A stretch of DNA of 64,000 bases from Bacteroidia bacterium. Its GTDB lineage: Bacteria; Bacteroidota; Bacteroidia; AKYH767-A; 2013-40CM-41-45. Positions 6,992 through 63,828 of this stretch are shown one piece after another. Both the position numbers and the translations under genes were made by a program. The notes below the pieces were generated by a model. That model saw nothing but the letters and a program-made list of their open reading frames with translations, did no database searches and was not told the DNA's origin. The stretch is from NCBI GenBank assembly GCA_038230515.1, contig JBBRND010000001.1, forward strand, positions 88,464 through 152,463, given 5' to 3'. Every line of letters starts with the position of its first letter. The first letter of the stretch is position 1.

Positions 6992-7323
6992 AGTGTAAGT
7001 ATAAGAGAGAAATTTGTGTAACTTTTTTTCAGGTGCAAATTTTGCCGGAAATTGTGGGTTTGTGATTTGAAAGGTAAAGATTTTAGCTTTTTTTGGGCTG
7101 TTTGAAATGTTGCGATGAAACCGGGCGGTATAAAAATTAGCCCCGACAGGAGCGGCATCCTTTTTTTACCAAATTTTAAAATAAGAAAGAAAAAAAGATA
7201 TAGCGGATGGCGGGAGGGGTGGTGATTAGACGCGATGCATTTTCGCTCCAAAAAAAATTTAATGTTGACTTTGGTATATTGCCCGGGTATTTGATACAGC
7301 AGGGGGGCGTTTGGTAAGAGTGG

Positions 7324-12966: not shown

Positions 12967-14508
12967 ATGAAATCAAAACTAAAACTTCTCGATGAAAAAA
13001 TTGCCGAAGCTCAATTAGGTGGCGGCAAGAAACGCATCGAAGCACAACATAAAAAAGGAAAACTCACAGCACGCGAGCGCGTACATTTTCTTCTTGACGA
13101 AGGCAGCTTTGAAGAAATTGGAATGTTGGTTACGCACCGCTCCACAGAATTTGGTTTGGAGAAAGAAAAATACCTGGGCGATGGAGTGATTACCGGTTAC
13201 GGAACCATCAACAGTCGCCTTGTGTATGTGTATGCGCAGGACTTCACCGTGTTTGGCGGATCGCTGAGTGAAGCACATGCAGAAAAGATTTGCCGCATCA
13301 TGGATCTTGCAATGCAGAATGGTGCGCCCATTGTTGGACTAAATGATTCGGGCGGTGCGCGCATTCAGGAAGGAGTGGTTTCTCTTGGCGGCTACGCTGA
13401 TATTTTTTACCGCAACACGATGGCATCGGGAGTTATTCCGCAGATCAGCGCCATCATGGGACCATGCGCAGGTGGTGCGGTTTATTCTCCGGCAATCACC
13501 GATTTTATTGTGATGGTAGAAAACATGTCCTACATGTTTGTGACCGGACCGAATGTGGTGAAGACTGTTACGCACGAAGAAGTTTCGTCAGAAGAATTGG
13601 GTGGTGCGCAAACTCACGCTTCAAAATCCGGTGTTACTCATTTCACTTCTGCGAACGAATTGGAGTGCATTGCACTCATTAAAAAAATGTTGAGTTACAT
13701 GCCGCAGAACTGTGAGGACAGCCCTCCGGCTCTTGCGAATGAAAGTTCTGATGAATCGCGTCCCGGGCTCAACAATATTATTCCTGACAACTCGAATCAA
13801 CCATACGATATTAAAGAAGTAATTGAAAAAGTTTGTGACGAAGGAACTTTTCTCGAAGTGCATAAAGATTTTGCTGAAAATATTGTTGTCGGCTTTGCGC
13901 GGCTTGCAGGGAGGTCAATCGGCATCGTTGCCAATCAGCCTGCTCATCTTGCAGGTGTGCTTGACATTAATGCCTCCACCAAAGCAGCGCGCTTCGTTCG
14001 CTTCTGCGATTGCTTCAACATTCCGCTGTTGGTGTTTGAAGATGTTCCCGGTTTTCTTCCCGGCACGGATCAGGAATGGAACGGCATTATCACTAACGGA
14101 GCAAAACTTTTGTATGCATTCTGCGAAGCAACTGTTCCCCGCATTACGGTGATTACCCGCAAAGCTTATGGTGGTGCGTATGATGTGATGAACAGCAAGC
14201 ATATCGGTGCTGATATGAATTATGCATGGCCTTCAGCAGAAATTGCTGTGATGGGAGCAAAAGGCGCAGCAGAAATTATTTTCAAAAAAGAAATCAGTGA
14301 AGCCAAAGACCCCGATGCAAAACTGAAAGAGAAAGAAAAAGAATACATCGAACTTTTTGCTAATCCATACAAAGCAGCAGAGCGCGGGTATGTGGATGAG
14401 GTGATCAATCCGGAAGACACGCGGAAGAAATTAATTACCGCATTTAAAATGCTTGAAAACAAAGTAGCGAAACTGCCGAGGAAGAAGCATGGAAATATTC
14501 CTCTCTGA
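12967..14508 (+). CDS. acyl-CoA carboxylase beta subunit (carboxyltransferase; propionyl-/methylmalonyl-CoA type)
   Basis: 513 aa with [31 protein letters not shown] and a C-terminal HGNIPL. Confidence 0.95.
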
Positions 14509-14562
14509 TTCACGATGCACAAATCGCAATGCATGATTCACGATTCACAATTCACAATTAAG
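14507..14562. repeat. heptamer-phased word tract (8 x RATTCAC-like)
   Basis: GATTCAC GATGCAC AAATCGC AATGCAT GATTCAC GATTCAC AATTCAC AATTAAG in one 7-nt register. Confidence 0.75.
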
Positions 14563-15555
14563 AATGGGCTGGTTACATTATGCATTGCTGTTTGTGTATT
14601 GTGCATCTCCCTCTCAAGTTGTAATAACACCGATACAAAGCCAACAGCCAACAGCGAGAAACCGGTAGCTGCTTCCATAAGCGTTCCTTCTTTCAATGCG
14701 GACTCTGCTTATTCTTTTGTTCAAGCGCAATGCAATTTCGGACCGCGCACTCCGAATACAAAACAGCATGATGCCTGCGCTTCCTATCTTATCAGCAAAA
14801 TGAAAACGTATTGCGACACGGTGCTAGTGCAGAAAGGACAGGTAACTACTTTCAATAAAGTAAAACTGAACATTCAGAATATCATTTGCCAGTTCAATCC
14901 TCAAACAAAAAACCGGATTCTCTTATTTGCTCATTGGGATACGCGCCCGTGGGCTGATCAGGATACAGTTCATAAAGACGAACCGATACTTGCTGCTGAT
15001 GATGCAGGAAGCGGAGTGGCAGTGCTGATGGAGCTTGCGCGTATTCTTTCATCACAAAAAATTTCTGTTGGTGTTGATCTTGTTTTTTTTGATGCAGAAG
15101 ATTATGGTGTAAGAAGACAAGACGGACAGGATGATGACAGCTACGCATTGGGCACTCAGTACTGGTGCAAAAATCTGGTGCCCTCAACTTATTCTGCCAA
15201 CTATGGAATTTTACTCGACATGGTTGGCGCGCGCAACGCTACGTTTCATATTGAAGGATATTCAAAACAGTATGCCTCGTTTGTCGTTGATAAAGTGTGG
15301 GGTGCGGCAAATCATCTTGGCTACTCATCGTACTTTCAATATGCCGATGGTGGTTTTGTAACGGATGATCACGTGTATCCGAATCAGATTTTAAATATTC
15401 CCTGCGCGGATATTATTTATACCAAGCCCGGAACTTTTACGTTTGGTGATCACTGGCATACGCACCGCGATAACATGGACATTATTGACAGGAATACGTT
15501 GAAGGCGGTTGGGCAGACATTGATGCAGGTTTTGTTTACCGAAGCAGGAGCATAA
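14515..15555 (+). CDS. M28 family peptidase / glutaminyl-cyclase-like lipoprotein
   Basis: Lipobox LSSC, plus HWDTRPWADQD, ADDAGSGVAVLMELAR and FFDAEDYG. The start is uncertain (ATG 14515 or 14533) because the first codons lie in the heptamer tract. Confidence 0.8.
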   Translation: MHKSQCMIHDSQFTIKNGLVTLCIAVCVLCISLSSCNNTDTKPTANSEKPVAASISVPSFNADSAYSFVQAQCNFGPRTPNTKQHDACASYLISKMKTYCDTVLVQKGQVTTFNKVKLNIQNIICQFNPQTKNRILLFAHWDTRPWADQDTVHKDEPILAADDAGSGVAVLMELARILSSQKISVGVDLVFFDAEDYGVRRQDGQDDDSYALGTQYWCKNLVPSTYSANYGILLDMVGARNATFHIEGYSKQYASFVVDKVWGAANHLGYSSYFQYADGGFVTDDHVYPNQILNIPCADIIYTKPGTFTFGDHWHTHRDNMDIIDRNTLKAVGQTLMQVLFTEAGA

Positions 15556-16719: not shown

Positions 16720-16950
16720 CCTTCCGGCAAAAAGGATGGGCATTCCGGTCAAAAGGTTCAATTGAACGGTAAAATCGTTGGGTACTTCGGCAAAAGGGAT
16801 GGGTTGGCCAGTTAAACCGTTGGGTACTCCCGTAAAAGCGTTTGGTTGGCTGGGAAAACCGTTGGGGCCTCCAGTAAAACCGTTTGGTTGGCTGGGAAAA
16901 CTGTTGGGGCCTCCGGTAAAACCGTTGGGTTGGCTGGAAAAACCGTTGGG
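16720..16950. repeat. 21-bp phased array B (11 units, consensus NNCTCCGGTAAAACCGTTGGG)
   Basis: Units start at 16720 and every 21 bp through 16930. An A4 tract occupies positions 10-13 of every unit. The last six units alternate as a 42-bp super-repeat. Confidence 0.9.
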
Positions 16951-17295
16951 GTCATTTTTACAGCAAAACCACTTATTTTTCTCAAAATAAAGGTTTTTCG
17001 AAAAATCAATCCTTCCGCTTCGGGTGGCTTCAGGTGTTGTATGATGGATTGTGTGTGGCTCAACTCACGGATAGCGGGTGCACTTCTTCGGCTTTGCAGG
17101 TAGTTTCAATCAGGTGTATTTGGAGAGAATATTTTTTTGATGGGATGAAAAATTCCCGACCAGTTAAATATACCCTACTGTTTAAACCATGGACTATAGC
17201 TTTTATTTTTTCTGCCGGTTTATTTTCCGATTAAAACTTTTTCTATTTTCACATCCTCAAATTCAAAATTGTTCAACCCTAAAATTTAATTTATC

Positions 17296-24863: not shown

Positions 24864-26510
24864 TTACTGCTTCACAAATTTACTTCGGAAAACTTTTGTG
24901 CCGCTTGTTACTTCGAGGTAATACATTCCTGAAGCAAAGAGTCTACAGTCCACAGTCCTCAATCGGCAGTCCACAGCCGAGAAAACTTTTTCTCCCATGA
25001 GATTGTAAATTGAAATGTCTATTTCTTTTTTGTCTTTGAGAAACGAACCTGTTATTTCTAATTTATCAACGACAGGATTAGGATGTATTTCTGCGGACTG
25101 TGGATTGAAGACTGCTGACTGCGCGGAAGCGATGACATTAAACACTGCCGCCTCCACCTCACACCCATTCGCATCTGAGCATACTACATTTTAATCCCCG
25201 CTTGATGGTGCTACATAAAAATAATTTGTTGCACCGTTGATGATATTGCCATTGAAGTACCACTGATAAGTTGCTGCTCCTGCATTTGCAAAGAGTGTAT
25301 CTCCGCTTTGGGCGATTCCCTGCGGTGCGGGTGGAGGATAAACTATAATGTAATTGCTAAGTAAAAGTGTATCGCTGCCGTTTGTGTTTGTTGCTATAAG
25401 TTGCACATCGTAGCTGCCGGAGTTTGCATAGCAAATGTTTGTTGGATTGGTGGCTGTGCTTGTATCGGGTGTGGCTCCGGGGAATGACCATTGGTAAGAA
25501 GTTGCGTTGGAGGAGAGATTGAGAAAGGAAGTGCAGGTGCCGGGGCAGATATGATTTGGTGCACTGAAAGATGCTATAGAATTACAAGCATTAATATCAG
25601 GTGTATATTCCCAAAAATCATTATAACATGTAGCCCCCCCATACCTGCCTAATCCAATATATCCCTTACTCGATATAGAAAAATAGGCCAGCTCATCCCG
25701 GATTGTACCAGGAAAATTTGTTTTTTGAACCCATGCATTCGTAGTCGGATTATATTCCCATAAATCATTTTGAAACGTTCCGATAGCGGGTCCTTCACCG
25801 CAACCATAATATCCTTTATCGCAAATGGCAAATGCAGCAGCATCACCTCTTGAGCCTCCCGCAAAATTTACTTTCTGAGTCCATGAATCGGTAATACTAT
25901 TGTACTCCCATAAATCAGATAAAAACACTCCAGCATAACCGCAAATAATATAAGCATTCGTTCCGATTACGAAACAATTTGCATCTTCCCTTGCCAGTCC
26001 GGTAAGGTTTGTCTTCTGCGACCATGTATCTGCAGAGGGATCGTACTGTCAAATATCATTTGAGGGTGCGCCAGTGCTTATATAGCCAAAATTACCTATT
26101 GAAAAGCCCGCTGCTGCATACCTGGCACCTCCTGCAAAATTTGCTTTGGGTGGCCAGTTATTTGCTATTGTATCATATTCCCAAAAATCATTTACCGAGT
26201 TGAATAAACTATCTCTTCCGAGCCCTGCATACCCTTTATTGCCTACTGAGAAACCTACGGGTGCCTGCCTACCAAGACCACCATAATCTGCTTTCTGTGT
26301 CCATACATTTGTTGCAGGATCATACTCCCAGAATTCTTTGACGTTATTTATGAAACAGGAATAACCACATCCTACATATCCTTTAGTTCCAATGGAAAAA
26401 CAAAAAGGATAATTATAGCCCATTCCCGGATAAGAAGTTTTCTGGGTCCAGTAATCAGCCCGTGCAATCAGCGAACAAAAAATAAAAACTCCAACCAAAA
26501 CTTTTTTCAT
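24864..26510 (-). pseudogene. T9SS-sorted Kelch-like beta-propeller / PKD-domain protein interrupted by two in-frame stop codons
   Basis: Track ORFs 26049-26510, 25191-25928 and 24864-25157 are all in one frame. TGA at 26049-26051 sits where the repeat D-[FL]-W-E-Y-[DN]-P requires Trp. TAA at 25191-25193 sits where SGD-Y-NVVCSDANGC expects Tyr. N-terminal signal peptide and C-terminal T9SS CTD are both present. Confidence 0.75.
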
Positions 26511-26619: not shown

Positions 26620-26903
26620 GTTTCCAGTTCTGGAAGTGCCATCCTGAACGTTCAGACCCCTACTTGCAGAAATGGAAGTGCCATCCTGAACGTTCAGACC
26701 CCTGCTTCCAGAAATGGAAGTACCATGCTGAACGTTCAGACCCCTGCTTCCGGAAATGGAAGTGCCATCCTGAACGTTCAGACCCCTGCTTCCAGAAATG
26801 GAAATACCATGCTGAACGTTCAGACCCCCGCTTCCAGAAATGGAAGTGCCATGCTGAACGTTCAGACCCCTACTTCCAGAAATGGAAATGCATGCTGCAT
26901 TCC
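26620..26903. repeat. 42-bp tandem repeat C (6 full units plus partials), each with the 12-bp palindrome CTGAACGTTCAG
   Basis: Units start at 26632, 26674, 26716, 26758, 26800 and 26842 (GGAAGTGCCATCCTGAACGTTCAGACCCCTGCTTCCAGAAAT). Roughly 88-100 percent identity between units by eye. Confidence 0.95.
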
Positions 26904-37008: not shown

Positions 37009-37260
37009 TTTTCGGAAGCTGAAAGGGGAGCTGCGGAAGGGGTAAATGGTGACACGGATAAGAGTAAATGGATTGCGGATAAGGAAAAGGGAAGCCCGGA
37101 TGAGGGAAAATGAGTTGCGGATAAGAGAAAAAGGATCTCCGGAAGAGAGAAAAGGAGATGCGAAAATGGGAAATGGGATTGCGGAAGGCAGAAAAGGAAG
37201 CGCGGACTAGTGAAAAGAGTCCGCGGATGAAAGAAAAGGAAGCATGGAAATGATAAAAAT
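37009..37260. repeat. 21-bp phased array D (12 units, consensus NNTGCGGATAAGNGAAAAGGN)
   Basis: Units start at 37009 and every 21 bp through 37240. A [CG]CGGA core sits at positions 4-9 and an A3-5 tract at positions 15-19. Confidence 0.85.
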
Positions 37261-43093: not shown

Positions 43094-43099
43094 TTTGGA

Positions 43100-43116
43100 A
43101 TTTATGATTCTTGATT
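43100..43116. repeat. solo copy of the atp-cassette-B inverted-repeat arm
   Basis: ATTTATGATTCTTGATT is identical over 17 nt to 62165-62181, and to the reverse complement of 62587-62603. Confidence 0.85.
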
Positions 43117-56697: not shown

Positions 56698-57051
56698 CTA
56701 TTCGCGTACAATGATTTTGTCCCGGGTTATTTCAATGAATGAATAGTTTTGAATCAGTTCGATCAAAACAGGGAATGTTCGGGAAAAAAGGTCAAGCAAC
56801 TCGGGGTTCGAAATGTTTCCGGTTGTTACCAACATCAGTTTTGCAGGTTGGGATTTCAGGTAAAAACTATTTTCGAAATCAACATCTTTTGTAATAAGAC
56901 AGCACTGTTCCGCGTTGCATATTTTGCGGATTGTGTCGTCATCGGAAGTATTGGCTTCGGGCAATTCAAGAGTGTGAATGCTTTCACATTCCTGGTCGTT
57001 GAGCCATTGCGATAATGCTTTGGGAAGTTATGCGTCAACTAAAAATTTCAC
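56698..57051 (-). pseudogene. DUF5615-type PIN-like toxin gene with a premature TAA at codon 8
   Basis: GTG 57051 overlaps the DUF433 stop (GTGA). Translation is VKFLVDA-TAA(57028-57030)-LPKALSQWLNDQECESIHTLELPEANTSDDDTIRKI...ITKDVDF, matching the MKFLVDENLP... family pattern. Confidence 0.7.
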
Positions 57052-57287
57052 GATGCGGCTTTCACGATGCTCTTCACCTGTATTACTCGCGCTGCATATT
57101 CAAGGCAGGCAAGCATGTCTTCTTTTTCCAGATCGGGATAATCTTTCAGAATTTCTTCAATGCTCATGCCGGATGCAAGCAGTTCAAGCATGTTCTCCAC
57201 AGGATAGCGCAAACCACGGATGGTAGGTTTGCCGTGACAAATTTCAGGCAGCAAAGTAATTCTGTTTATATAAGATGGCTGAATCAT
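57048..57287 (-). CDS. DUF433 domain protein (putative antitoxin)
   Basis: 79 aa with CHGKPTIRGLRYPVENMLELLASGMSIEEILKDYPDLEKEDMLACLEYA, the typical DUF433 core. Confidence 0.85.
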   Translation of the reverse strand: MIQPSYINRITLLPEICHGKPTIRGLRYPVENMLELLASGMSIEEILKDYPDLEKEDMLACLEYAARVIQVKSIVKAAS

Positions 57288-59010: not shown

Positions 59011-59048
59011 GAAAACAAAACCGCCCCTCTCATTGCTGAAAGAGGCGG
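59011..59048 (-). terminator. rho-independent terminator after atpG
   Basis: Minus strand: CCGCCTCT...AGAGGGGCGG stem with a 2-nt bulge, followed by TTTTGTTTT. Confidence 0.5.
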
Positions 59049-59072
59049 CTGTGTTTTACTGCTTAGTGTTAT

Positions 59073-59957: not shown

Positions 59958-59964
59958 GTTGTTT

Positions 59965-60560
59965 CAGTTGGCAGTTGGCAATTTGCAGTGAGCAAATGAA
60001 CAGCCAAATTTTTAGTGTGCAATTGGCAGTGTGCAGTATGCAAAGTGAACAGCCAAATAGCGCATTGATTTATTTTTTATTCAATTATTTTTTCCCCTTT
60101 TGCGAACTGCTAACAGCTATTTGCTAACTACTTTTTATTGTTTTGATATTTTTCAGGATTCTCAATCATGTGATTCAACATTTTTCCTACTTCCTCCGAT
60201 TTAATAATTAAATCTTTATATATTGATTCAACAATGTATTTACAAGATAAGGAATAATCTAACCAAACCTGCGTCTCCGCATTTTCCATATCGGCATCGC
60301 TTGACTTGCTAACGAAGTGCGCCTGGTACTGTCTTTTGCGATACCCCTCACCGATATTCGAACAAACTGATCTTGATGACCTTCTTATCTGTGATATCAA
60401 TCCGTACTTTTCTTCATTCGGAAATTTCTTTGTGATCTCAAATATTTCCATTGAAAGTTTGAATGCTTTCTTGTAAACAGTCAGATCACGAAATGTTCCC
60501 ATTTGTGCCAGTGGTCAGTTTGCAAACTTTTTTGGGCTGCTAATTGCAAACTGCCAACTG
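59965..60560 (-). mobile_element. inverted-repeat-bounded four-helix-bundle ORF cassette A (IVS-like insertion between atpA and atpG)
   Basis: Arms CAGTTGGCAGTTGGCAATT (59965-59983) and AATTGCAAACTGCCAACTG (60542-60560) are complementary at 18 of 19 positions. The flanks are heptamer-phased words. Mobility is inferred, not shown. Confidence 0.4.
60128..60502 (-). CDS. four-helix-bundle protein (23S rRNA intervening-sequence protein family)
   Basis: 124 aa with FRDLTVYKKAFKLSMEIF and QIRRSSRSVCSNIGEGY, characteristic of the family (PF05635/TIGR02436 type, from memory). Confidence 0.85.
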   Translation of the reverse strand: MGTFRDLTVYKKAFKLSMEIFEITKKFPNEEKYGLISQIRRSSRSVCSNIGEGYRKRQYQAHFVSKSSDADMENAETQVWLDYSLSCKYIVESIYKDLIIKSEEVGKMLNHMIENPEKYQNNKK

Positions 60561-60572
60561 CATTTTGCCAAT

Positions 60573-62153
60573 CTAGCCCTTGTATTTCGGTACTAACTCT
60601 GATGCCACTTTTTCAAGTACAGAAGTAATGCTGTCATCAAGCGTTCCTTTCCTAAGTGCATCGAGCGTAGAGCGATGTTGTGCATCAAGTAATCCGACAT
60701 ATTCAATTTCAAATTCACCTATTCGTTTTACGGGAACATCGCGAAGCAATCCTTTTGTACCGAGATAAATAATTGCGATTTGTTTTTCTACGGGAATCGG
60801 AGAGTACTGACCTTGCTTCAGAATTTCCACATTGCGAATACCTTTTTCAAGAGTAGCTTTTGTTGATGCATCGAGATCGGAACCGAATTTTGAGAACGCT
60901 TCAAGTTCGCGGTATTGCGCCTGGTCAAGCTTTAGTGTACCCGCAATTTTCTTCATGGATTTGATCTGTGCATTACCACCCACGCGTGATACAGAGATAC
61001 CCACGTTGATGGCGGGACGAACACCTGAGTTAAATAAATTCGACTCAAGGAAAATCTGTCCGTCAGTAATGGAGATTACGTTTGTGGGAATGTATGCTGA
61101 TACGTCACCTGCCTGCGTTTCGATAATCGGAAGAGCCGTTAATGATCCGCCACCTTTCACCATGTGTTTGATGGATTCAGGAAGATCGTTCATCTGGCGC
61201 GCAATCTCATCAGTGTTGTTGATTTTCGCTGCGCGCTCGAGCAATCTTGAGTGAAGATAAAATACATCACCCGGGTATGCTTCGCGTCCCGGAGGTCTGC
61301 GGAGGAGAAGAGAAACTTCGCGATATGCAACTGCCTGTTTGGAAAGATCATCATACACGATCAATGCCGGACGACCGGTGTCGCGGAAAAATTCTCCGAT
61401 AGATGCACCTGCCATTGGTGCGAAGAACTGCATTGGTGCAGGATCGGCTGCTGATGCAGCAACGATGACTGTGTAAGCCATTGCTCCGTGTTCGGTCAAT
61501 GTCTTTACGATCTGTGCAACGGTAGAACCTTTTTGTCCGATTGCAACATAGATGCAAAACACCGGCTCACCTTTTTCATAAAATTCTTTTTGGTTGATGA
61601 TGGTGTCAATCGCAACAGCAGTTTTTCCGGTCTGGCGATCACCAATGATCAACTCACGCTGACCGCGACCGATTGGAATCATTGCATCAATCGGTTTCAA
61701 ACCTGTTTGCAACGGCTCGTTCACCGGCTGACGATAAATTACTCCAGGTGCTTTGCGCTCCAGCGGCATTTCATATACATCGCCTGTGATCGGTCCTTTG
61801 CCGTCAATCGGTTTTCCAAGTGAATCAACCACGCGCCCCAACATTCCTTCACCAACTTTTATGGATCCGATTTTTCCGGTACGCTTTACTACATCACCTT
61901 CTTTAATGTCGTTCGAACTTCCGAGCAACACAGCACCCACGTTGTCTTCTTCAAGATTCAACACGATGCCTTGCAAGCCGGTTTCAAATTCAATCAACTC
62001 TCCTGATTGAACTTTTGTGAGTCCGTATATGCGCGCGATACCGTCACCTACCTGTAACACGGTACCAACTTCTTCGAGTTCAGTTTCTGTTTTGAAGCCC
62101 GCGAGTTGTTGTCTTAAAATCGCTGATACTTCATCCGGTCTAACTTCTGCCAT
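60573..62153 (-). CDS. atpA: F0F1 ATP synthase subunit alpha
   Basis: Walker A GDRQTGKT and the 526-aa canonical alpha sequence. Confidence 0.97.
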
Positions 62154-62162
62154 TTTTATTTA

Positions 62163-62605
62163 TGATTTATGATTCTTGATTTATGATTGAAATCCTTCAA
62201 TCTCTATTTTTTATTTTGATTTATTTTATTTCGAACTGTTATTGCTGATGCCGCAAATATTGCTGTTAACTCATCTGCTTCTTTCCACAATTTTTTTATC
62301 TCTTCATCTTTTATCATTTCTGATTCTTCAAGTATTTCAAACCAGTACGCACATTCATCTGATTCTTCTTCGCAGATCGAAATTCTGGAAGCAAAATCTG
62401 CGTCTGTTCTCGAACGGCAGGTGCTTCTGTAATTTGCTCCGACCGATGTACCACTCTTTGCCAACTGATATTCTATCACTGATGCTGCTTTTGATTTCGG
62501 CATCTTCTCAAGGAACTTCAAAACATCAATCGCAAATTTTTTCGTTCTCTTCTTTAACTCGACACTGTTCATGGTTGCTTGTCTTTAATCAAGAATCATA
62601 AATCA
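62163..62605 (-). mobile_element. inverted-repeat-bounded four-helix-bundle ORF cassette B (IVS-like insertion between atpH and atpA)
   Basis: Perfect 19-bp inverted repeat TGATTTATGATTCTTGATT (62163-62181) / AATCAAGAATCATAAATCA (62587-62605). Mobility is inferred, not shown. Confidence 0.45.
62204..62572 (-). CDS. four-helix-bundle protein (23S rRNA intervening-sequence protein family), second subtype
   Basis: 122 aa with RTKKFAIDVLKF, QLAKSGTSVGANYRS and ESDECAYWFEIL motifs. Confidence 0.8.
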   Translation of the reverse strand: MNSVELKKRTKKFAIDVLKFLEKMPKSKAASVIEYQLAKSGTSVGANYRSTCRSRTDADFASRISICEEESDECAYWFEILEESEMIKDEEIKKLWKEADELTAIFAASAITVRNKINQNKK

Positions 62606-62615
62606 GCAATGTGCG

Positions 62616-63173
62616 TTAGTTCTTCCGCACGTAAGACGTATCCACCAACTCCTGCCTCAACTGCCGCAGCTCGCTTTGGATACTTGCATCGTATTGTTTA
62701 TCGCCCACGCGGAGAACAAATCCTCCGATGAGGTTCTTGTCAACTTTTTCCAACAATTCAATTTCGCTGTTTAAACTTTCTTTGATGATTTTGAAAACAT
62801 CGCTTCGCAATTTATCATCAAGCCCAATAGCAGAAGTAACAATTGCGGTTTGAATTCCTTTGAACTCTTTATAAAGCCGGATAAATTCTTTGGCAATTCC
62901 TTCAAGATGCGACTCCCGACCTTTCTTGGTGATGATCTCGAAAAAAGAAATGGAAAGCGTATTCATCTTTCCTGCAAATACTTTTTTCAAAATGGTCAGT
63001 TTCTTATCAGCGTTGATAATTGGACTGCCAAGCAAAAGAGAAAGATCTTTGTTGTTCTCGCACACGGAAGCAAGCAACTTCATGTCTTCCATAACTGCTT
63101 CAAGCACTCCTCTTTCTTTTGAAAGATCGAGAAGAGATTTCGCGTATCGCTTGGCTACTTTAGTTTCAATCAT
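62616..63173 (-). CDS. atpH: F0F1 ATP synthase subunit delta
   Basis: 185 aa with VAKRYAKSLLDL at the N-terminus (OSCP/delta family). Position in the operon fits. Confidence 0.9.
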   Translation of the reverse strand: MIETKVAKRYAKSLLDLSKERGVLEAVMEDMKLLASVCENNKDLSLLLGSPIINADKKLTILKKVFAGKMNTLSISFFEIITKKGRESHLEGIAKEFIRLYKEFKGIQTAIVTSAIGLDDKLRSDVFKIIKESLNSEIELLEKVDKNLIGGFVLRVGDKQYDASIQSELRQLRQELVDTSYVRKN

Positions 63174-63672: not shown

Positions 63673-63715
63673 TGGGTGAAATTTTTAAAGCCGCACCAAA
63701 AAATTCTCTTGTGTC

Positions 63716-63790
63716 ATGCCGAACTTATTTCGGCATCTGCTAAATCAAAGTATGTGCTTTGATTGAAGGGATGCTGACATTCGTCAGCAT
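63716..63790 (-). promoter_or_regulatory. two 8-bp stem-loops in the atpE-atpF spacer
   Basis: ATGCCGAA (63716-63723) / TTCGGCAT (63729-63736) and ATGCTGAC (63771-63778) / GTCAGCAT (63783-63790). Confidence 0.4.
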
Positions 63791-63828
63791 GACAACGCTT
63801 ATTTTGATGCGAGCGGTTAAACTTTTAA

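Follow-up and report, generated by a model that had tools for sequence, protein, structure and literature searches.

The atp operon analysed here raises a simple question: why is the gap between atpH and atpA, two cistrons of an essential operon, filled by a small open reading frame (ORF) enclosed in a perfect inverted repeat? The window, a 64-kb stretch of Bacteroidia contig JBBRND010000001.1, carries the genes of its atp locus on the minus strand. We refer to the unit in question as cassette B and to a related unit in the neighbouring atpA–atpG gap as cassette A; codes beginning with L or P denote loci or contigs of relatives. Cassette B takes the place of the atpH–atpA spacer from stop codon to start codon. 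As to what it is, the analysis leaves us evenly balanced on the reading that we prefer, in which cassette B would be a co-transcribed hairpin cassette of the intervening sequence (IVS) type, lying in an mRNA rather than in rRNA and processed at the RNA level. The features of the site, in the order of the transcript, are as follows.

62616–63173, minus strand: atpH (OSCP/delta subunit), the upstream cistron.
62582–62610, minus strand: 5' arm in mRNA sense, built of GATT-type 7-nt words (TGATTTAT GATTCTT GATT), with its perfect core at 62587–62605.
62204–62572, minus strand: cassette B ORF, promoter-less, 122 aa, encoding a PF05635 (23S_rRNA_IVP)/TIGR02436 four-helix-bundle protein of the B subtype.
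62158–62188, minus strand: 3' arm, in which AATC-type words (mRNA sense) form a 31-nt array (AATCATA AATCAAG AATCATA AATCATA AAT; period 7, 4.4 copies), with its perfect core at 62163–62181.
60573–62153, minus strand: atpA (alpha subunit), the downstream cistron.

The initial annotation of this DNA described a perfect 19-bp inverted repeat, and its coordinates and spacings hold. On the plus strand, 62163–62181 reads TGATTTATGATTCTTGATT, and 62587–62605 is the exact reverse complement. One perfect core is separated from the atpA ATG (62153) by 9 nt, the other from the atpH stop codon (62616) by 10 nt. Complementarity reaches 29 nt at 86% (62158–62186 with 62582–62610), and the full 31-nt 3' array ends 4 nt before the atpA ATG. 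No other perfect inverted repeat of the window with a gap of up to 600 nt is as long as this 19-nt repeat, whereas 30 second-order Markov simulations of the window yielded inverted repeats of 16 nt at most. In the predicted fold of the transcript strand, the 19-bp stem closes both the minimum-free-energy and the centroid structure (z = -3.1).

Since the arms are AT-rich and repetitive, one might suspect an accidental complementarity in a low-complexity AT-rich spacer. We give this explanation practically no chance and rule it out: the 19-nt repeat beats all 30 simulations, the arms are kept in relatives despite saturated synonymous sites and the same architecture recurs in 80 loci (see below).

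The arms have an internal structure of their own. Tandem Repeats Finder reports a period of 7 nt in both arms of both cassettes. Each arm of cassette B consists of about 4.5 seven-nucleotide words, GATTnnn on the 5' side and complementary, AATC-type words (nnnAATC) on the 3' side. The units differ from each other at 2–3 positions (83% matches) and are thus not head-to-tail copies of a single identical unit. The cassette arms match no Rfam family, either at the gathering score or at E values up to 1. Searching the window with the cassette B arm at up to three mismatches gives four matches, compared with 0.1 expected. A solo copy of the arm, reported earlier, is real:

43098–43116, plus strand: solo 5'-type arm GAATTTATGATTCTTGATT in a short gap between co-directional genes, with neither a partner array nor an ORF.

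It agrees with the cassette B arm at 17 of 19 positions and begins 4 nt past the stop codon of the preceding gene. The window as a whole contains cassette B once in full and its arm once on its own; it also counts 12 period-7 segments (0.55 expected from shuffles), some of which lie inside coding sequence.

The ORF at 62204–62572 is the only one between the arms and contains the motifs QLAKSGTSVGANYRS and ECAYWFEIL. The view that it encodes a four-helix-bundle protein is supported by scores of 61.6 bits against PF05635 ('23S rRNA-intervening sequence protein'; cut-off 33.8) and 76.6 bits against TIGR02436 ('four helix bundle protein'; cut-off 24). In addition, a profile of the B subfamily matches PDB entry 2RLD (BT_0352) at an E value of 4e-32, and also 2GSC (XCC0516). 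There are five chains per entry, and XCC0516 is reported to be a toroidal homopentamer (PMC4990558). Neither cassette ORF has a match in the PADLOC defence-system library, the PHROGs phage library returns nothing for cassette B, and the cassette B ORF matches no model of Avd, the accessory variability determinant of diversity-generating retroelements (DGRs). Between the window and its closest relative L002 (AtpA 94% identical), pN is 0.065, pS is 0.69 and dN/dS is 0.035. The cassette B ORF is under strong purifying selection, and its protein (88% identical) is better kept between these two genomes than that of atpH (75%).

Cassette A serves as the sister element for comparison.

60537–60560, minus strand: cassette A, outer 5' arm, with words of the CAGTTGG type in mRNA sense.
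60128–60502, minus strand: cassette A ORF, PF05635, A subtype, in the atpA–atpG gap.
59965–59988, minus strand: cassette A, outer 3' arm, with words of the CCAACTG type in mRNA sense, pairing with 60537–60560 (24 nt, 92%).

The ORFs of cassettes A and B are the only PF05635-family members in the window. Both score above the PF05635 and TIGR02436 cut-offs, yet they are only 21% identical and find each other with phmmer only at E ~4e-5. Together with the distinct word families, this confirms the proposal that the two cassettes represent one type of element in separate subtypes with unlike arm words. Weak matches to bAvd, DivGenRetAVD (31 bits, cut-off 80) and, in PHROGs, the Avd family phrog_3206 are obtained for the cassette A ORF. 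The flanks of cassette A (59958–60127 and 60503–60572) hold more than a simple ORF-in-loop: a complete small hairpin (60509–60525/60544–60560) precedes the ORF, and a second 5'-type array and long 3'-type arrays follow it.

How general is this architecture? Taking one genome per species, we assembled 80 distant loci of the B subfamily, which span at least eight phyla (Bacteroidota, Verrucomicrobiota, Acidobacteriota, Planctomycetota, Nitrospirota, Ignavibacteriota, Chloroflexota and others). The longest perfect complementary run between the two flanks has a median of 12 nt, compared with 7 nt in mismatched-locus controls; 59% of the loci exceed the 95th percentile of the controls, and the runs reach up to 34 nt, irregular words included. 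At lag 7, the two flanks have autocorrelations of 0.44 and 0.43, compared with 0.26 in controls, and 7 is the top lag in 74–75% of flanks but in only 6–15% of controls. Array length is a median of 31–32 nt (interquartile range 26–33), equivalent to 4–5 words. Polarity is fixed, with GATT-type, C-poor words upstream and AATC-type, G-poor words downstream. The words themselves differ widely between lineages and show no conserved termini. Cultured carriers of such cassettes include Mucilaginibacter sp. FT3.2 (L017) as well as Flavobacterium procerum and F. macrobrachii (L034, L063).

The tight fit between atpH and atpA had been taken as a sign of targeted or strongly selected placement, and the survey upholds this view. 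The median distance is 2 nt from the upstream stop codon to the beginning of the 5' array and 4 nt from the end of the 3' array to the downstream start codon. In 56 of 68 loci, the genes on either side are both co-directional, compared with 59 of 91 control genes (p = 0.02). Other housekeeping operons are occupied as well: Pfam matches confirm the gaps pyrR–pyrB, nuoJ–nuoK, nuoD–nuoE and murD–ftsW, and in two further loci, where one neighbour each was checked, it is an amino-acid kinase (argB-like, L055) or an LpxA-type acyltransferase (L042). In several relatives, the cassette ORF continues across the 3' arm, and its stop codon adjoins or overlaps the next ATG. Nevertheless, translation of atpA cannot in general be coupled to that of the cassette, because the ORF stops before the 3' arm in the window and in 18 of 31 loci.

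To place cassette B in time, we compared the atp loci of relatives. Proteins 74–88% identical to that of cassette B are found in the same atpH–atpA gap at L002, L009–L012 and L105 and on the P0004 contig. Across three lineages, the identities (88, 76 and 70%) follow the divergence of atpH and atpF. Since synonymous sites are saturated and the ORF is under purifying selection, cassette B has resided in this gap for a long time and was inherited vertically. Cassette A has a different history. At L002, cassette B is present and the atpA–atpG gap contains an ORF-less hairpin only, as it does at L009. In other genomes, that gap is filled by A-type proteins 80–85% identical to that of cassette A, and an A-type protein of 77% identity sits in the atpH–atpA gap of L114–L117. 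The differing histories show that the two cassettes are independent insertions, as had been suggested, and that the atpH–atpA gap has been colonised by both subtypes.

B-type relatives with proteins of 71–79% identity also occur in three other contexts. The cassette lies between a Band_7 gene and an M24 peptidase gene at L004–L008 and between two cytochrome-oxidase-like (cox) genes, identified by eye, at L106, both times with the same arm words. On the P0007 contig, a B-type protein is encoded upstream of atpE, in the atpB–atpE gap; this case is known from the protein alone, and its arms were not seen. The close relatives came from exact-protein look-ups; a scan of metagenomes for close relatives of the B protein gave only matches of at most 54% identity. 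The arm words go with the ORF. A-type cassettes always have CAGTTGG/GTTGGCA ... CCAACTG/TGCCAAC words, in whichever gap they lie, and B-type cassettes have GATTTCN/GATTCTT ... AAGAATC/ATAAATC words. Because the arm words track the ORF subtype and not the site, the mobile unit consists of the ORF together with its arms, and we can rule out that the arms are mere native atpH–atpA spacer. Two near-identical B-type cassettes stand in tandem in a Verrucomicrobia metagenome-assembled genome (MAG; L065, 14–1053), with long CAAATCG/GATTGCC arrays between them, a tandem duplication of the whole unit.

These data bear on the possibility that the main action of the arms is at the level of DNA. In that case, the inverted heptad arrays would be substrates for recombination or transposition, as a single-strand hairpin or cruciform, comparable to integron attC sites, REP/RAYT systems or the terminal repeats of MITEs (miniature inverted-repeat transposable elements). 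A trans-acting enzyme would recognise them, the PF05635 protein perhaps helping, and the RNA stem would be a by-product. Such a role would account for a unit of ORF and arms that appears in unrelated gaps of different genomes, for arms that track subtype, for one gap colonised by both subtypes and for arm sequence kept far beyond the needs of pairing. It would also fit the abundance of ORF-less, MITE-like hairpins of the same words, which make up 15 of 93 inverted array pairs (those with gaps below 100 nt). However, neither a transposase nor a recombinase, nor a reverse transcriptase, was found in or beside any cassette examined, and no target-site duplication is visible by eye at six B-type cassettes, the outer ends of which abut stop and start codons. 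Also, arm words that vary so widely by lineage provide no conserved termini, and the residence in the atp gap is long and vertical. We therefore regard a mainly DNA-level role as possible though not probable. It is compatible with the RNA-processing reading, because some DNA-level step must exist.

A further possibility is that cassette B is the relic of a retro-element. Its excised stem-loop RNA would be reverse-transcribed by an enzyme supplied in trans, with the Avd-like PF05635 protein as accessory factor, and the cDNA would be re-integrated. PF05635 is homologous to the Avd protein of DGRs, as the weak matches of cassette A reflect (PMC10053308), and the orientation bias of the cassettes fits an RNA intermediate. 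Against this stand the missing reverse transcriptase gene beside every cassette examined, the lack of any Avd-model match for the B subtype and the size of the PF05635 family, which is far more abundant than DGRs (1,477 database matches for the B query and 5,604 for the A query). No template/variable repeat pair was noticed either, though none was specifically sought. We consider this origin very unlikely.

Arrays also occur in the absence of the ORF. The atpA–atpG gap of L009 contains a plain hairpin of the same CAGTTGG/CCAACTG words that flank cassette A of the window, and heptad hairpins are found in most atp gaps of L002 and L114. In 576 kb of retrieved loci, we counted 93 inverted pairs of period-7 arrays with a bimodal spacing, 15 pairs being less than 100 nt apart and the rest 350–800 nt.

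Such hairpins could alternatively belong to the host, as intercistronic punctuation that sets the relative stability and translation of the atp cistrons. The PF05635 protein would then be a domesticated RNA-binding factor, a pentamer that recognises arrays of about five words and modulates them. Several findings are in line with this idea: every atp gap in L002, L009 and L114 bears such a hairpin, with or without an ORF; the median distance between the 3' array and the next start codon is 4 nt; the dN/dS is 0.035; and array length is held tightly at 4–5 words, while solved family members have five chains per entry and XCC0516 is reported to be a homopentamer (PMC4990558). Nevertheless, the presence of the ORF differs among close relatives at the same site (cassette A compared with ORF-less hairpins), the word families differ between lineages and gaps, and the patchy spread over unrelated operons and phyla looks like an element and not like an ancestral regulator. 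A host device is thus quite unlikely in our judgement.

An ORF-less hairpin with words ATTTATGATTTATGATT... / ...AAATCATAAATCATAAAT, nearly those of the window's cassette B arms, is present in a Verrucomicrobiaceae MAG (L089, 4286–4391); the likeness could be convergence or transfer across phyla. Further period-7 arrays of the window come without a PF05635 ORF (14508–14565, 51505–51529, 48699–48728 and 53624–53654; GATTCAC, AACCTCA, CTTGATA and TTCGGTT types), and two of them immediately precede start codons in short gaps that separate co-directional genes. An inverted heptad pair at 24940–24976 and 25090–25125 (AGTCCAC type and GTGGACT type) lies within the coding sequence of a type IX secretion system (T9SS)-type C-terminal sorting domain on the minus strand. 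It is translated as ...SAQSAVFNPQSAE... and ...SAVDCRLRTVDCRLFA..., so the hairpin appears in frame in the protein. The atpE–atpF gap (63680–63800) holds two GC-richer hairpins (GTCATGCTGACGAATGTCAGCATCC and GATGCCGAAATAAGTTCGGCATGAC), which are REP-like and not heptad arrays.

We next turn to the stem itself. All six B-type cassettes that can be aligned give long-range closing stems when folded, and RNAalifold finds a consensus closing stem of 22 pairs in four blocks at 7-nt spacing. The arms of homologous cassettes in other genomes are thus complementary to each other, as the initial annotation expected. The GATT/AATC cores of the words pair and are invariant, whereas mismatches are frequent at the one or two variable positions of each word. 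Despite saturated synonymous sites, the 3' arm AATCATAAATCAAGAATCATAAATCATAAAT is nearly invariant in the six cassettes, which come from four contexts. Only one compensatory pair was found in the B-type arms. Since the arm cores are invariant, covariation neither supports nor refutes the stem: the arms are conserved and do not covary. Likewise, the perfect pairing is true of the window but is specific to its lineage, as the stems of relatives are mismatched every 7 nt. The perfect 19-bp stem is a derived state, the 5' arm of the window having TAT where relatives have TC(G/T).

The transcription context is given by a single feature.

59019–59050, minus strand: intrinsic-terminator-like hairpin after atpG, the only strong one on the operon strand.

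No terminator was found on the operon strand within the cassette region. As the only strong terminator-like hairpin follows atpG, both cassettes should be inside the transcription unit. A sigma-70 promoter scan gives nine matches (7.8 in shuffles), but this model is unsuited to Bacteroidota promoters and is silent on an internal promoter.

Based on these data, the RNA-processing reading can be spelled out as follows. Cassette B would be transcribed within the atpBEFHAG message, and its arms would pair into a stem of 20–30 bp with the ORF in the loop. By analogy with the Coxiella IVS and the Correia elements, RNase III would cut the arm stem. The cut would separate the atpH-proximal RNA, the cassette RNA and the atpA-proximal RNA, leaving both cistrons undamaged, and the G-poor, A/C-rich remnant of the 3' arm would stay as the atpA leader. 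The cassette would persist because it is nearly harmless, might also serve as an intercistronic processing or stability signal, and would spread rarely, through some DNA-level step. As a working guess, the putatively pentameric PF05635 protein may bind the arrays of about five words; if it does bind its own arrays, this would be the first function for PF05635 members outside DGRs. If the processing model is true, the cassettes would illustrate how a selfish insert can sit in essential operons (atp, nuo, cox, mur–fts) without polar damage, and they could be portable processing or leader modules.

Several points weigh against this account. Most stems of relatives have mismatches of 1–2 nt every 7 nt, and such periodic mismatches may make a poor RNase III substrate. 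An uncleaved stable stem ending 9 nt ahead of the atpA ATG could hinder initiation. The invariance of the arm cores leaves almost no covariation to show that pairing, rather than the words, is selected. Cassette A looks like a hairpin–ORF–hairpin arrangement, as do its A-type relatives L109 and L112, and not like an ORF in a loop. Finally, the conservation of the arm sequence, the array length of 4.5 words and the strong selection acting on a probably pentameric protein point to sequence-specific recognition, which the RNase III model does not need; arm conservation and protein selection fit such recognition better than a mere RNase III stem.

Additionally, the window contains several other features. 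A Flavo-1 RNA motif lies at 7135–7221 on the plus strand (59.5 bits, gathering score 42) and a tRNA gene at 51966–52036 on the same strand. Together with T9SS sorting domains and the atpBEFHAG gene order, the Flavo-1 motif is indicative of a Bacteroidota genome. Tandem repeats of period 21 or 42 at 16767–16951, 26631–26891 and 37055–37198 (up to 6.2 copies, 92% identity) are probably repeat-containing coding regions. Two small adjoining ORFs of 88 and 79 aa at 56698–57287 (minus strand) resemble, by eye, a DUF433-type antitoxin and a PIN-like toxin.

Heptanucleotide repeats are known from other bacteria. Those of cyanobacteria (STRR) were reportedly described by Mazel et al. in 1990. In Xanthomonas, GGGAATC arrays form at least 70 convergent (inverted) pairs, and they have been read, like the GGGGAYT arrays of Nostoc, as G-quadruplex formers (PMC4692102). 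TAACTGA arrays, known from Beggiatoaceae, Cyanobacteria and Bacteroidetes, are located immediately upstream of start codons (PMC4679880). One Xanthomonas array (repeat 15 of the supplementary table) is only 6 nt away from bccP and overlaps XCC0516 at its annotated start (PMC4692102). Neither of these two papers mentions an S23p/PF05635 protein, and both interpret the arrays as simple sequence repeats, as G-quadruplex formers or as sites for regulators. The cassette arrays share with the published repeats the period of 7 and the location in short gaps between co-directional genes, a few nucleotides from start or stop codons. They differ in that their words vary at 2–3 positions, in that their length is fixed at about 4.5 words and in that GATT-type arrays are always followed by AATC-type arrays around an ORF or a short loop. 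The G-quadruplex reading is inapplicable to them, since the cassette words are A/T-rich and lack G runs.

The ORF-less heptad hairpins look analogous to the Correia/NEMIS elements of Neisseria. These are small intergenic inverted-repeat elements that are co-transcribed and form hairpins bound and cut by RNase III, which alters mRNA fate (PMC2649163). Cassette B shares terminal inverted repeats with Correia elements and MITEs. However, Correia elements lack an ORF and are marked by conserved terminal repeats and a duplicated TA target, whereas the cassettes have lineage-specific heptad words, show no duplication and often contain a conserved protein gene. Intercistronic RNase III hairpins are also found in phage T7, where the polycistronic mRNA is cut into separately stable mRNAs; unlike the cassettes, these hairpins are not mobile and have neither a loop ORF nor heptad structure. 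An integron cassette has a single attC downstream of a promoter-less ORF and belongs to an array beside intI/attI, whereas cassette B has two arms around its ORF and sits in a housekeeping operon. Avd of the DGRs has been described as a pentamer. It shares a homologous four-helix-bundle fold with PF05635 (PMC10053308), but the neighbours of cassette B are atpH and atpA, with no adjacent reverse transcriptase, and the B ORF reaches no Avd model.

Three phenomena have so far been reported separately: the 23S rRNA IVSs with an ORF, the very large, Avd-related family of 'four helix bundle proteins' of unknown function, and abundant intergenic heptanucleotide repeats. Our data suggest that they are faces of a single element type of strict architecture. 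A bolder version, which we hold only tentatively and think rather unlikely, is that PF05635 cassettes and ORF-less hairpins form one pan-bacterial class of selfish elements without a recognisable transposase. The pentamer would recognise the arrays of about five words of its own subtype and direct spread or maintenance at stop-to-start junctions of highly expressed operons and in rRNA helices. If true, this would explain the rRNA IVSs and much of the excess of intergenic heptanucleotide repeats (STRR, GGGAATC, TAACTGA). Full-text searches of open-access papers and bioRxiv under the family names turned up no account of the general cassette architecture. In the same literature, we did not find the strict heptad architecture, the stop-to-start placement in essential operons across phyla or the link to heptanucleotide repeats.

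The closest known system is the IVS of 23S rRNA. In Coxiella burnetii, it is 428 nt long, has a 28-bp terminal stem and contains the S23p (PF05635) ORF, with two or three tandem GACAGAT heptamers before the S23p start codon; RNase III cuts it in vitro, the 5' cut falling at the first repeat (PMC4990558). ORF-containing IVSs are also present in the 23S rRNA of Leptospira, Xanthomonas and Brucella (PMC4990558). Like these, cassette B has a PF05635 ORF, a length of ~430–480 nt and terminal inverted repeats that would give a stem of ~20–30 bp around the ORF, and it would be part of a highly expressed host transcript, whose orientation it shares. It also shares with the Coxiella IVS tandem heptameric repeats between stem and start codon. 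Unlike the IVSs, which occupy helix 25 or 45 of 23S rRNA, cassette B lies in the intercistronic gap between atpH and atpA of a protein-coding operon, and Rfam detects no rRNA in the window. Both of its arms consist wholly of heptad words, unlike those of the Coxiella IVS, and strong purifying selection acts on its ORF, whereas that of Coxiella is in decay and probably not translated. Cleavage by RNase III has been demonstrated in vitro for the Coxiella IVS and is proposed for cassette B by analogy. Since both the gene family and the IVS precedent are already known, the cassette is not a new kind of thing; what distinguishes it from the Coxiella IVS is its place in an mRNA, its all-heptad arms and its conserved ORF.

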